36,534 nt of DNA from Candidatus Thalassarchaeum betae (lineage in GTDB: Archaea; Thermoplasmatota; Poseidoniia; Poseidoniales; Thalassarchaeaceae): assembly GCA_003193925.1 (NCBI GenBank), contig PSPG01000014.1:1-36534 (forward strand). The letters are read 5' to 3'. The position numbers and the translations under genes were made by a program. The number at the start of each line of letters is the position of its first letter. Position 1 is the first letter of the stretch. The notes beneath the pieces are model-generated. The model saw only the letters and a list, made by a program, of their open reading frames with translations, had not been told where the DNA came from and did no database searches. Shown one piece after another: positions 145 through 3,179 of this stretch.

Positions 145-378
145 CTACTCTTCAGAGGCCGAATCGGTACCCTGTTCGGGCGGAGAATCCTTCTTCCCTC
201 GGGAATCGGCCCGCCAGATGCCAGCGGCCACCAGCAGGAAGAAGCTGAAGCCCACGATCCAAGCCTCTCTGACCCCAAACATCTCCATCGAGGTGAAACT
301 GAGTCCGATTGTGCATACAATCCAGACGACACCGATGAACAGGAAAATCTTCGCATCATCTCCCTTGTCGTCAGCCAT
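145..378 (-). CDS. Small 2-TM membrane protein, probable accessory subunit of the oxidase-like operon
   Basis: 77 aa, two hydrophobic segments; starts 15 nt after the subunit I stop, with a purine-rich SD (GGGAGGGGAGAGG) before the ATG. Confidence 0.7.
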   Translation of the reverse strand: MADDKGDDAKIFLFIGVVWIVCTIGLSFTSMEMFGVREAWIVGFSFFLLVAAGIWRADSRGKKDSPPEQGTDSASEE

Positions 379-393
379 CCTCTCCCCTCCCGT

Positions 394-2070
394 TCATCCC
401 GGCAAATCTCCAACCATTGAGAATGTCAACCAAGTGAGCGCGAACAACGCCGCGAGCGCGACGAACATCACGATCGTGGCCGTGGGCGCCTTGACAGCCC
501 CCGGCTCGGCGGGTTCCCATCGTACAGTGGGCAGGTTGGCAGTCACCTCGCCGACTCCTGCCTCCTCGCCAGACCGCAAGGTGCGGACGAGCCCGTACAC
601 GAACAGCAGCAGAACGATGGCCATGATGATTCCACCGAGGCCGACGAGCGCATTCAGAAGGGGAATCGAAGCGTGCAAGTCGTACTCCGGCGCCAGCGTC
701 CGCCGAGCCGAGCCGAGGTATCCGGCGGCGATGCCCGAGACGCCGAACAGGTAAACTCCGACGGTGAGCGCCCAGGGCAGTTGAGCCATCAGTTTCGGGT
801 TCCACAGCTGCCTGCCGTAGAGGATGGGGATGACGTACATCAGCAGCCCGATGAAGGTGAGCGTGATAGTGCCCACGGTGAAGAAGTGGAAGTAGGCCGG
901 GATTGCGAAGGTGTCCGACAGCAGAGCGGCGAATTTCACCTGTATGAGGATGTTTGCAAGCACTCCACCGGCGGCGGCACAGACGCAGGCGGCCGCAATC
1001 GAGGAGAAGGCGGGGTTGCCCCACGGCAGGTCGCGCATCCAGGCGAACAGCCCCTGTCTTCCTTCGCTGACCCGCGCACTCGCTTCGAGGGAGACCAGGA
1101 TGATGACGAACACCATGATCGTCGGGATGCTGATGAACATGGCGAGTGTCGAGGCGACCGTCTTCATCAGCGCGGAGATGGTCGGGTCGAGGAACATGTG
1201 GTAGAGGAAGGTCGGGGGGAGGACGACTAGGTAGAAGGAAAAGAAGACCTTCGACAATCGATCGCTGAAGATGCTCTTCACACCGGTAGTGACCTCCGCC
1301 AGAGCATACCAGACCAACACCGTGGACAGCAGAGGCAAGTAGTGCATGTTGTGGAACATCACGTGATAGGCAATCATGTAGTCGAAGTCCATCGGCCCAC
1401 CGCCTTCCAAGGCCCACAAGGCAGTCCTGCCGAACACATTCAGCGCGGCGAATGAGGTGACGGTGAGCAGGGCCGCCCAGAGCGTCGCGGCGAAGGTGAT
1501 GGAGGACCAGCTCTCGACCTTGCCGTCCAACTTCGCTTTGATGGGAGTCGCGATGCAAGGAATCGAGACGCACAACAGACCGAGTCCGAGCAGGACGTAG
1601 CCGACGTAGAACCAGTCAGCACCCGGCATCCCATCAGACAGCGGGGCGAGTCCGGTGTAGGTGATGACCGCTCCCATCCAAGGTGCGATCTGGTCGATCA
1701 GGAAACCGGCTGACATCAGGCCGAACCCTACCCACGCCAAGTTGCGCCAGACCAGCTCGTCGACACCATCGGTGTAGACGAGCACGAACACCATCACCAC
1801 AGCAACCTGCACGAAGTAGAGCCAGTAGTAGAATACCGTGGTTCCATGCAGAGTGAGAATCGTGTAGGCTAGGGTTGACTCGAGGGAGAGGAAACCCCCC
1901 TTGACCAACACGAGCAGCAAAGCGTAGAGGACTCCAAGCCCAAGAGTGAAGATGCTGACGAGCACGAAAGCCTTCAGCAACCGCCTGTCCCCCTCTGCCA
2001 GACTTGACAGCGAAGCCTCGAACCGCCCCGAAGCATGCTCAATGGTGGATTCGTCACCTTGTTCCGCCAT
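394..2070 (-). CDS. Heme-copper oxidase superfamily subunit I (ba3/B-family-like), atypical active site
   Basis: 558 aa, ~13 hydrophobic helices; TLH75G (low-spin heme His), H240NMHY244, Y290H291MFLDP, LPWGNP, DTFAIPAY393FH395, R456R457; lies next to a CuA subunit II. Confidence 0.9.
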   Translation of the reverse strand: MAEQGDESTIEHASGRFEASLSSLAEGDRRLLKAFVLVSIFTLGLGVLYALLLVLVKGGFLSLESTLAYTILTLHGTTVFYYWLYFVQVAVVMVFVLVYTDGVDELVWRNLAWVGFGLMSAGFLIDQIAPWMGAVITYTGLAPLSDGMPGADWFYVGYVLLGLGLLCVSIPCIATPIKAKLDGKVESWSSITFAATLWAALLTVTSFAALNVFGRTALWALEGGGPMDFDYMIAYHVMFHNMHYLPLLSTVLVWYALAEVTTGVKSIFSDRLSKVFFSFYLVVLPPTFLYHMFLDPTISALMKTVASTLAMFISIPTIMVFVIILVSLEASARVSEGRQGLFAWMRDLPWGNPAFSSIAAACVCAAAGGVLANILIQVKFAALLSDTFAIPAYFHFFTVGTITLTFIGLLMYVIPILYGRQLWNPKLMAQLPWALTVGVYLFGVSGIAAGYLGSARRTLAPEYDLHASIPLLNALVGLGGIIMAIVLLLFVYGLVRTLRSGEEAGVGEVTANLPTVRWEPAEPGAVKAPTATIVMFVALAALFALTWLTFSMVGDLPG

Positions 2071-2086
2071 CGTTCATCGCCCCGTT

Positions 2087-2632
2087 TCACACAACGACAA
2101 TCTTGCCGCTCATGCCGTTATGCTGCTCCCCGCAGTAGTAACTGCAGTACAGCGTGTACTCTCCCGGCTCGTCGAATGTCAGTCTCTGTTCGATCACTAC
2201 TCCTGGAATGAGCCTGACCATCTGGCTGCCGGAGTCGGTGCTGACCGAGGCGCCATGGTAGACGTCCATCGTCATCATCCTGAACTGATACTCGACGCCG
2301 GCTTCCAGTTGAATCTCAGCAGGTGAGTATCCCCATTGGTAGGCGGCGAGGTAGACCGGATTCATCGACATCCGCTCCCCGCCCATTACCATCCAGCCAG
2401 GGTCAGGCGCCACCACGATGCCGGCGTCCGCATCCCAGTTGTTCTCTTCGAAGAGAATGGTGATTGCCATGAACTGACCAGCAGACATCTCACTGGGGCC
2501 TCCGTGCCCGGCGTGGGCATCGCCAGCACCCTCTTCTGCGGTGTAGGCGCCGCCCAGAGACCAAGGGATGATGAGCAGGAGCAGTGAGAGGCTGGTCAGG
2601 ACCGCGCCCAGCGGCTCACTCGAACGATTCAT
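2087..2632 (-). CDS. Heme-copper oxidase subunit II with CuA site
   Basis: Single N-terminal TM; AYQWGYSP, DVYHG and CSYYCGEQHNGM (H...CxxxCxxxHxxM CuA motif); SD GAGGTGA upstream. Confidence 0.92.
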   Translation of the reverse strand: MNRSSEPLGAVLTSLSLLLLIIPWSLGGAYTAEEGAGDAHAGHGGPSEMSAGQFMAITILFEENNWDADAGIVVAPDPGWMVMGGERMSMNPVYLAAYQWGYSPAEIQLEAGVEYQFRMMTMDVYHGASVSTDSGSQMVRLIPGVVIEQRLTFDEPGEYTLYCSYYCGEQHNGMSGKIVVV

Positions 2633-2654
2633 GCTTGTTCACCTCGGAATCGAA

Positions 2655-3179
2655 TCACCGCTCCTTGCGGGTGGCGACGATGGAGGCTGCTGTGATTGCC
2701 GCGACGGCCAACCCGAAGGCGAAGCCGGGAATCCCATCATCCTGCGTGTGTTCGTCGTGCATGTCACCACTCATGTCCATCTGGGTGGCTGTGTGGACGG
2801 CGGAATCGTTGTTCACCCAGGTGACTGTGACACCGGGTTGGATCTTCACCGTGCTCGGTTGGTAGCTGAAGCCGTCGATGTAGATGGTGACGTCGTCAGC
2901 GCGGGCATCAGAGTCGTCGGAGACGTTCACCCAGCCGGTGAAGTCGGGGAAGCCTTCGTGAGGCGGGTGCGGAGTGCAGGAGTACATGTCATTCGACGCC
3001 ATCGTGAAGGTGTGTGACCAACTCTCATTCTGAGCCAGTTCTCCGCTGTCCCACAACTCCATCTCTTTCGCGCTTGCCGAAGGCAAGAGGAACATGAGGG
3101 GTAAGAGCAGCATCAGGGCGGCCCCTAACCGCACAGTAGTTCGGGTTTTGTTCTCACCTGATTTTCTTGATTTATTCAT
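2655..3179 (-). CDS. Secreted plastocyanin/amicyanin-like cupredoxin (circularly permuted) with PGF-CTERM anchor
   Basis: Signal peptide (..PSASA); WDSGEL..SHTF..YSCTPHP; FSYQPSTVKIQPGVTVTWVNND..HT; C-terminal IPGF + TM + RKER. Start 3179 chosen from the TATA position. Confidence 0.85.
   Translation of the reverse strand: MNKSRKSGENKTRTTVRLGAALMLLLPLMFLLPSASAKEMELWDSGELAQNESWSHTFTMASNDMYSCTPHPPHEGFPDFTGWVNVSDDSDARADDVTIYIDGFSYQPSTVKIQPGVTVTWVNNDSAVHTATQMDMSGDMHDEHTQDDGIPGFAFGLAVAAITAASIVATRKER

Follow-up and report, generated by a model that had tools for sequence, protein, structure and literature searches.

What reaction is left to a heme-copper oxidoreductase (HCO) in which two of the six canonical histidine ligands have become tyrosines? 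The question is raised by four adjacent genes at one end of contig PSPG01000014.1 of Candidatus Thalassarchaeum betae (assembly GCA_003193925.1); the 36,534 nucleotides analyzed here, positions 1 to 36,534 of the forward strand, are referred to as the window. In order of transcription the genes encode a cupredoxin, a CuA subunit II, a heme-copper subunit I and a small peptide with two transmembrane helices. A preliminary description, made from the DNA letters alone, had proposed that they form an undescribed respiratory system in which the electron donor and the catalytic subunit are both modified. The four genes very probably do represent a real, conserved and uncharacterized HCO variant. As to its function, the reading preferred here, tentatively and with somewhat less than even confidence, is that the clade derives from B-type (ba3-like) oxidases, carries out non-standard peroxide or O2 chemistry and is fed in this organism by the cupredoxin.

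Tyrosine for histidine in subunit I

The subunit I protein scores 125.4 bits against the Pfam COX1 model (PF00115; cutoff 34.8) and 34 bits against the CtaD model. Among solved structures it comes closest to the ba3 subunit I chains (E 1e-24), with 20-23% of residues identical. An AF2 model built from 53 sequences has a predicted local distance difference test score (pLDDT) of 91.4 and 13 predicted helices, and a fold search with this model placed ba3 at the top, with template modeling scores of 0.76-0.79 and with ba3 and aa3 chains leading the matches. The COX1 match, together with a fold of at least 12 helices, places the protein in the heme-copper superfamily, and its closeness to the B family (ba3 type) is accompanied by a one-helix CuA subunit II.

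Ligands were mapped by ungapped alignment to ba3 around the ligand motifs, with the ba3 numbering and roles (H72, H233, Y237, H282, H283, H384 and H386) being those we assume for that enzyme. Four of the six canonical histidine ligands are kept. The equivalents of ba3 H282 and H384 are tyrosine in all 121 sequences of a set made up of the window protein and its 120 best database matches, and in this the preliminary description of a rewired heme-copper subunit was borne out. A histidine is gained as well, at the equivalent of ba3 V236, a position fixed through PDB entry titles: H243 is aligned with the site of the mutation in 4g71, a V236N chain. Residues H75, H240, H243, Y244, Y290, H291, Y393 and H395 are each present in 121 of 121 sequences, and all eight are invariant also in the 53-row alignment, which includes members at 25-37% identity. 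The His-x3-Tyr pattern of helix VI (H240...Y244) is likewise invariant (121/121), observed as a sequence pattern rather than as a covalent cross-link. The heme-propionate arginine pair is kept (R456 in 121/121, R457 in 118/121), K274 and D386 are found in every sequence, and N241 in 120 of the 121.

In most bacterial members of the clade (P0039, P0067, P0100 and P0120 among them) the carboxyl terminus of subunit I is a Gly-rich stretch closed by His, and among the 121 sequences GGGH is the terminus of 38, GGAH of 10 and GAGH of 9. Marine Group II proteins, including that of the window, end in ...LPG without the terminal His. The bacterial tail may supply an extra metal ligand or serve in copper handling.

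Distribution, ancestry and constraint

When 1.84 billion cluster representatives were searched exhaustively, 301 matched at E <= 1e-3 and 33 at E <= 1e-30. In a 43-row alignment the 19 closest rows, down to 29% identity, all have Y290-H291 on helix VII, and 18 of them have Tyr-x-His on helix X, the exception (P0145) being misaligned there. Helix X reads His-x-His in each of the 23 more distant rows, and helix VII reads canonical His-His in 21 of them; some of these rows carry Gln in place of the active-site Tyr in the manner of nitric oxide reductases (NORs), for example the sequence from the haloarchaeon Natrarchaeobius. Judged from these sequences, the rewired subunit I is an invariant signature of a clade that spans bacteria and archaea, and is not local to the window cluster. 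A deeper sister group (P0137, P0142, P0143, P0147 and P0152; 29-37% identity), one member of which comes from a Dehalococcoidia metagenome-assembled genome (MAG), keeps the His...His-Tyr, Tyr-His and Tyr-x-His patterns. Because it does so, the tyrosine substitutions must predate the core family; D386 varies in the sister group and is specific to the core.

A FastTree phylogeny of 91 rows separated an 83-row Tyr-variant clade from 8 canonical B-like or NOR-like rows, a small and uncurated outgroup, with a support of 100; the clade did not group within canonical B-family sequences in this tree. Within the core family the archaeal rows form a basal group (support 81), next to which stands a proteobacterial clade (support 99), a placement of deep branches that is tentative.

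NOR-like sequences are the next neighbors beyond the clade, and the genes could thus be viewed as a further NOR lineage descended from B-type oxidases. According to the text of the survey by Murali et al. (2024; PMC11214002), remodeling of the active site in B-type ancestors gave rise to several NOR families, and some hosts of the present clade belong to denitrifier genera (Thioalkalivibrio denitrificans, Azoarcus, Azospirillum). The B-derived families described in that text (eNOR, sNOR, bNOR, nNOR and gNOR) are, however, defined by a missing active-site Tyr, whereas the clade keeps both Y244 (121/121) and CuA. gNOR, as described there, has Asp for one active-site His and a subunit II without CuA; the clade differs in having two His to Tyr changes rather than Asp, one of them at the heme axial ligand, and in its intact CuA. 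Pfam scans of 12 loci revealed no nir, nor or nos genes, and NirK and NirS were not found in the host genome at 92% completeness. A nitric oxide reductase is, on balance, very unlikely.

A motif-seeded scan of one genome per species over 185,579 species yielded 241 loci with a relative, of which 80 were examined in detail. They come from Thalassarchaeaceae (locus L003, 75% identity), other Thermoplasmatota MAGs, Alpha-, Beta- and Gammaproteobacteria, and Thermaceae; isolates include Azospirillum, Hydrogenophaga pseudoflava, Nitrincola alkalilacustris, Thioalkalivibrio denitrificans and Azoarcus taiwanensis, and Marinithermus also carries a member. Subunit II lies immediately 5' of subunit I in 79 of the 80 loci, the exception being at a contig end. 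The two-helix peptide gene lies immediately 3' of subunit I in 78 by hidden Markov model (HMM) and in L003 by phmmer, the remaining locus being cut. The conserved gene order that the preliminary description had looked for is found for the core trio of subunit II, subunit I and peptide, kept in 79 of the 80 loci, with the cupredoxin standing outside that core.

Comparison of the window with L003 gave ratios of nonsynonymous to synonymous substitution rates (dN/dS) of 0.37 for the cupredoxin, 0.18 for subunit II, 0.24 for subunit I and 0.22 for the peptide, values that come from this single pair, at dS of 0.7-1.5, and of which none is near 1, the value that had been named beforehand as telling against the system. 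Cluster DNA is present in marine and hydrothermal-vent metagenomes. Parts of each of the four genes are represented, at 90-99% identity, by contigs from four metatranscriptome runs (RNA libraries of four studies); 16 of the 19 pieces are at or above 95%, one contig bridges the junction between subunit II and subunit I (1914-2299), and another bridges that between the cupredoxin and subunit II (2606-2756). The runs held only small shares (0.07-0.12), and the uncovered stretches are uninformative.

These data bear on the thought that the cluster is a decaying or non-catalytic relic of an oxidase. Canonical ligands have been lost, and the cluster must be called accessory because it was not found in 60 of 60 sampled relatives of the same genus, family and order (E <= 1e-60). 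The substituted residues are nevertheless invariant across bacteria and archaea, the dN/dS values (0.18-0.37) indicate purifying selection, the open reading frames (ORFs) are intact, the three-gene synteny is conserved and RNA-library contigs lie over the genes, all of which makes a relic extremely improbable.

CuA subunit II and a probable third subunit

Similarity to the CuA domain of the Thermus ba3 enzyme (E 7e-17 to 1e-15) identifies subunit II, which consists of one N-terminal transmembrane helix followed by a ba3-like cupredoxin domain. Its CuA ligand set, H126, C163, C167, H171 and M174, is complete, in line with the first assignment as a CuA subunit, and of 80 family rows 79-80 retain each ligand. 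A linker rich in His, Gly and Met joins the helix to a conserved Glu-Glu-Phe and reads HAGHGG...M in the window protein; GGHGGHG-like linkers occur in many bacterial members, and a simple pattern for them is matched by 51 of the 80 rows. Long Met-Asp-His-Gly repeat linkers are present in loci L060 (3863-4807), L079 (4072-5001) and L081, with up to 24 His and 11 Met in that of L060. Such repeats recall the copper-binding repeats of periplasmic copper-resistance proteins.

The 77-residue peptide of the window matched no Pfam or NCBIfam family; two helices are predicted in it, in agreement with the first assignment, and across the clade its homologs are 57-85 residues in length with W19, M33, W40 and F47 invariant in the alignment. 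Modeled as a complex with subunit I, it scored 0.89, 0.89 and 0.90 in three runs (best of three controls, 0.00), a level that 58 of 80 solved complexes and 2 of 110 mismatched pairs reach in a rough calibration that used custom alignments. The runs agree in at least 88% of contacts, with partner pLDDT of at least 76, and the modeled contacts lie on subunit I residues 173-211, 229-237 and 270-302, helices around the active-site ligands. The model supports the proposal that the peptide packs on helices V-VII of subunit I as a third subunit. In some marine gammaproteobacterial MAGs the peptide is tandemly duplicated, with four helices by hydropathy in the forms of 126-128 residues (L016, L017, L021, L024 and L029) and three in that of L014 (140 residues); the peptides of L014 and L028 give two HMM domains each.

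When set beside ba3 of Thermus thermophilus (PDB 1ehk, 1xme, 3s8f), the clade has in common with it a single-helix CuA subunit II, 13 helices in subunit I, the low-spin heme His pair, the His-x3-Tyr pattern and the arginine pair. It differs in the tyrosines at H282 and H384, in the histidine at V236, and in a small subunit that is a two-helix peptide encoded 3' of subunit I; the ba3 small subunit is the one-helix subunit IIa.

This relationship invites the simpler explanation of an ordinary, perhaps high-affinity, B-type O2 reductase with unusual ligands, serving as an alternative terminal oxidase. The nearest enzyme in both sequence and fold is ba3, and the His-Tyr pair, CuA, the low-spin heme ligands and the arginine pair are all retained. 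The host is an aerobe with an A-type oxidase: the search for a canonical A-type enzyme that had been advised located a COX2-COX1-COX3 operon elsewhere in its genome, and several oxidases per organism are common. Two of the six canonical histidines are nonetheless replaced in all 121 members, and a Tyr axial ligand is expected, from general heme chemistry, to disfavor the ferrous, O2-binding state. In the text of PMC11214002 the active-site histidines are wholly conserved in HCO families, with gNOR as the exception. The ordinary-reductase explanation is for these reasons considered unlikely.

A permuted cupredoxin with a narrow distribution

The cupredoxin passes the Pfam plastocyanin/azurin model PF00127 (27.5 bits; cutoff 21.2), and amicyanin and plastocyanin models also match it in profile searches. 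When a profile of 12 rows (the window protein and 11 relatives) was used, amicyanin 1id2 was matched twice with the order swapped: query residues 89-129, the half with the N-terminal His, on 14-54, and query residues 48-74, the Cys-x2-His loop, on 73-99. The blue copper protein 5fc9 was matched in swapped order too (query 106-139 on 19-52, query 39-76 on 53-90). By the order of these matched segments, the protein is circularly permuted, its new ends falling just past the His strand, and the permutation claimed at the outset is upheld.

All 12 rows have the candidate copper ligands C68, H71 and H129; where the axial Met would canonically stand there is H, N, D or E, and M134 and M136 hardly vary. 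The PF00127 match and the Cys and two His assign the protein to the type-1 copper family, without the canonical strand order or the axial Met. It has in common with amicyanin, plastocyanin and 5fc9 the Cys-x2-His loop, the upstream His and a similar domain size, and differs from them in its swapped halves and in a C-terminal PGF-CTERM membrane anchor. Both 5fc9, which we take to be an archaeal "purple" cupredoxin with an open axial site, and the window protein are without a Met after the loop in the aligned stretch. The anchor is recognized by model TIGR04126 (25.4 bits; cutoff 24.5) at residues 159-184 of a 186-residue form of the protein, and a signal/anchor region is also predicted. An ESM Atlas look-up gave borderline feature matches (0.90) to archaeal blue-copper clusters, which serve as a lead only, and yielded no structure.

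Only 10 homologs, at 56-74% identity, were found among 5.8 billion proteins. Besides the window cluster, the permuted cupredoxin was found in one of the 80 relative loci (L003), and phmmer and the family HMM did not find it in the other 79; canonical cupredoxins are present in three bacterial loci. The permuted cupredoxin is a lineage-specific add-on to the three-gene core. The idea that changes in donor and catalytic subunit form one coordinated package must accordingly be given up, since the rewiring is clade-wide and the cupredoxin is confined to the two clusters. As a natural circularly permuted, membrane-anchored blue copper protein, it is a smaller curiosity in its own right.

Copper genes near the bacterial loci

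Copper-homeostasis genes, counted as P1B-ATPase, DUF2933, DUF411, CusF, multicopper oxidase and cupredoxin, occur within 5 kb in 31 of the 80 loci. Most are in Betaproteobacteria (20 of 25 loci), with 7 of 29 in Alphaproteobacteria, 2 of 11 in Gammaproteobacteria and 0 of 5 in archaea, and at least two kinds of copper gene are found in 16 loci; the loci counted are related to each other, and enrichment was judged against an assumed low background rather than control loci. DUF411 lies immediately 5' of subunit II in several loci, and CusRS-type regulators adjoin the cluster in L079, L081 and L060.

In locus L074 (1268-4343, 7558-10898) the order is multicopper oxidase, cupredoxin, CusF, DUF411, subunit II, subunit I and peptide, followed by DUF2933, an ICMT-like methyltransferase and a Cu P-type ATPase. 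The pairing of DUF2933 with the ICMT-like gene is seen in 13 loci.

Such surroundings suggest a copper-detoxifying respiratory module, in which subunit II would take electrons from periplasmic Cu(I), directly or by way of small copper proteins, and pass them to O2 or peroxide, as a membrane-bound counterpart of the cuprous oxidase CueO. The copper neighbors, above all those of the Betaproteobacteria, the adjoining DUF411 and CusRS-type genes, the His/Gly/Met linkers of 51 of 80 subunit II rows, the Met-Asp-His repeats of L060, L079 and L081, and the occurrence of cluster DNA in vent as well as marine metagenomes are all in keeping with it. Few marine alpha- or gammaproteobacterial loci and none of the five archaeal loci have copper neighbors, however, and the dedicated cupredoxin of the window cluster points to a protein donor. 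The counts are, as noted, not independent and lack a measured background, and copper regulation could equally reflect the enzyme's own high copper demand. Cu(I) oxidation is a serious rival for the bacterial members, and improbable for the clade as a whole.

Neither the window cluster nor the other archaeal loci lie in a copper island (0 of 5). No neighbor is shared among the archaeal flanks by Pfam at 1e-6 in proteins of at least 100 residues, a search that small or weak domains would escape. These flanks include a ZIP transporter in L003, HTH_10 regulators in L022 and L026, and MsrA in L026.

Proposed electron path and chemistry

From the retained and substituted residues we infer the cofactor content, the electron path and the substrate of the complex. 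Because CuA, the bis-His ligands of the low-spin heme and the arginine pair are retained, electrons would enter as in ba3, and both heme pockets would persist. The copper of the PGF-CTERM-anchored cupredoxin, as the likely donor, would reduce CuA, from which electrons would pass to the low-spin heme (H75/H395) and on to a catalytic heme with Tyr393 as its axial ligand. Beside this heme H240, H243 and H291 would form a metal site, with Y290 and Y244 close by. Peroxide would be reduced there, or O2 processed in a non-standard manner, on the outer membrane face, and the complex, which may be electrogenic, would act as a stress-linked oxidoreductase and not as a housekeeping oxidase. The route from cupredoxin through CuA and low-spin heme to a non-canonical center, as drawn in the preliminary description, fits the retained ligands; nothing supports the accompanying suggestion that the system might operate in a different direction.

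A tyrosinate axial ligand lowers the potential of a heme and favors its ferric and ferryl states, as in catalase. If Tyr393 were such a ligand, the heme would be expected to be of low potential and ferric, so that peroxide or non-standard O2 chemistry would be favored. The identity of the ligands is thus what points away from standard O2 reduction, as had been proposed, and probably correctly so; the narrower assignment of the acceptor, to peroxide or to O2 by a non-standard route, is rather doubtful.

The comparison with catalase can be carried further. The heme site of catalase has a proximal Tyr and a distal His and Asn. The core family has an invariant Tyr at the proximal position and, on the distal helix, His243 (121/121) and a near-invariant Asn241 (120/121). 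The fold is unrelated to that of catalase, Asn241 is absent from the wider clade, and the clade has a second metal site together with input through CuA and the low-spin heme. The boldest form of the proposal is that the clade is a peroxide reductase built on the heme-copper scaffold, in which the tyrosinate heme with its distal His (and, in the core, Asn) would react with H2O2, and cupredoxins, cytochromes c or Cu(I) would supply the electrons that return it to the reduced state by way of CuA and the low-spin heme. This form is unlikely to be correct. If true, charge separation would be coupled to the clearing of both peroxide and Cu(I) at the outer membrane face, and an unrecognized peroxide respiration or detoxification would exist in marine archaea and in proteobacterial copper islands. 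Catalase and KatG-type peroxidase were not found in the 92%-complete host genome.

Several points weigh against the reading of non-standard peroxide or O2 chemistry fed by the cupredoxin. Tyr393 may not ligate iron, and a different cofactor may occupy the site. H240 and Y244, whose retention is a mark of O2 reductases in the text of PMC11214002, make a modified O2 reductase plausible. The tie to peroxide comes from general heme chemistry, and N241 is specific to the core family, its place being taken by V, I or M in the wider clade. The donor role of the cupredoxin, likely as it is, is drawn from adjacency, and because the AF2 model of that protein is poor (pLDDT 51.4 from the 12-row alignment), it is the profile matches that carry the permutation. 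The five archaeal loci are without copper or oxidative-stress neighbors except for the single MsrA of L026, the cluster is accessory in its lineage, and the RNA-library contigs are weak evidence of transcription.

Relation to described families and significance

The suggestion that the system is undescribed held up as far as it was tested: no characterized oxidase or NOR family that was tested matched it. NCBIfam and Pfam have no specific model for the clade, and public annotations carry generic names only. No description of it was found in the literature searched; subscription papers and the figures and supplements of PMC11214002 were outside that scope and could name it. One candidate for a prior description, 10.1101/534180, proved irrelevant in the part of it available. 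The same literature yielded no HCO in copper islands and no permuted electron-carrier cupredoxin.

It is worth emphasizing why such a clade would matter. The six histidines of subunit I are near-universal in the superfamily, and the text of the survey (PMC11214002) names only gNOR as replacing one of them. In the clade two are tyrosines, one of them at the axial position of the catalytic heme, and the clade is under strong constraint and has a conserved third subunit of its own. It is found in about 240 species-level genomes, including those of the cultivable Azospirillum, Hydrogenophaga, Nitrincola and Marinithermus, and is thereby experimentally tractable. If confirmed, its chemistry would extend that of the superfamily and could bear on how O2, NO and peroxide reactions diverged on one scaffold, on the link between copper stress and respiration in Proteobacteria, and on an accessory role, in energy supply or under stress, among the abundant marine Group II archaea.

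Layout of the locus

The ORF listing gives four same-strand (minus) frames at 145-3179, separated by 22, 16 and 15 nucleotides, in accord with the gaps of 15-22 nucleotides first reported; the Shine-Dalgarno-like (SD-like) motifs before the three downstream genes and the TATA-like element before the first were also located where expected (Table 1). The TATA-like hexamer sits in a 114-nucleotide spacer that follows an M14 peptidase gene. An alternative start of the cupredoxin ORF, a TTG at 3215, gives the 186-residue form (2655-3215). The window begins at the contig end, with 144 nucleotides remaining beyond the peptide gene, and because of this the description of the module as self-contained leans on its relative L003.

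Table 1. Features of the cluster, listed in the direction of transcription, with subunit I residues given beside their ba3 equivalents
Feature	Position in window	Strand	Basis or comment
TATA-like hexamer TTATAT	3223..3228	minus	Sequence read; 44-49 nucleotides 5' of the cupredoxin ATG (3179)
Circularly permuted type-1 cupredoxin gene, 174 residues	2655..3179	minus	ATG start used in the preliminary description
Cupredoxin C68, candidate Cu ligand	2976-2978	minus	Codon position
Cupredoxin H71, candidate Cu ligand	2967-2969	minus	Codon position
Cupredoxin H129, candidate Cu ligand	2793-2795	minus	Codon position
PGF-CTERM sorting signal of cupredoxin	about 2664-2741	minus	TIGR04126 match
SD-like GAGGTGA	2639..2645	minus	6 nucleotides 5' of the subunit II ATG
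CuA subunit II gene, 181 residues	2087..2632	minus	ba3 subunit II match; ligand set
SD-like GGGG	2080..2083	minus	5' of the subunit I gene
Heme-copper subunit I gene, 558 residues	394..2070	minus	COX1 match; B-type-derived clade
Subunit I H75, H395 (ba3 H72, H386)			Low-spin heme ligands, kept
Subunit I H240, Y244 (ba3 H233, Y237)			CuB ligand and cross-linked Tyr in ba3, kept
Subunit I H243 (ba3 V236)	1342-1344	minus	New His; ba3 position adjoins the active site
Subunit I Y290 (ba3 H282)	1201-1203	minus	CuB ligand in ba3
Subunit I H291 (ba3 H283)			CuB ligand, kept
Subunit I Y393 (ba3 H384)	892-894	minus	Catalytic-heme axial ligand in ba3
SD-like GGGAGGGGAGAGG	379..391	minus	Immediately 5' of the peptide ATG
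Two-helix peptide gene, 77 residues	145..378	minus	Helix prediction; conserved 3' of subunit I

Neighboring genes and the host genome

The rest of the window holds housekeeping genes, among them aIF5B, NDK, L7Ae, UvrB, UbiA/UbiD and one for cytochrome c assembly. A block of L7Ae, NDK and aIF5B is found close to the cluster both in the window (8054-14079) and in the Thermoplasmata MAG L022 (4999-8776), where L24e is added, and this shared neighborhood hints at an old chromosomal position as opposed to a recent insertion. The aIF5B of L022 has a weak Intein_splicing match just below the Pfam cutoff (35.5 versus 35.8 bits). The A-type COX1 of the host (L001:793-3123, G000 contig C4), flanked by COX2 and a COX3-like gene, is 776 residues long and has a 236-residue N-terminal extension before the COX1 domain.

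At 26011-28287 on the plus strand of the window is a gene for a 758-residue protein with a cytochrome c assembly (CcsA/ResC-type) domain, and at 21750-24574 on the minus strand a UbiA prenyltransferase gene adjoins one for a UbiD decarboxylase; these may bear on the supply of heme and quinone to oxidases. A 366-residue, extremely Glu/Arg/Leu-rich, coiled-coil-like ORF at 4932-6032 (plus) is opposed by an equally long, Ser/Arg-rich antisense ORF at 4898-5998 (minus). Neither of the two matches Pfam, and in this part of the window the local GC content (0.65), the GC skew and the AT skew all peak there.

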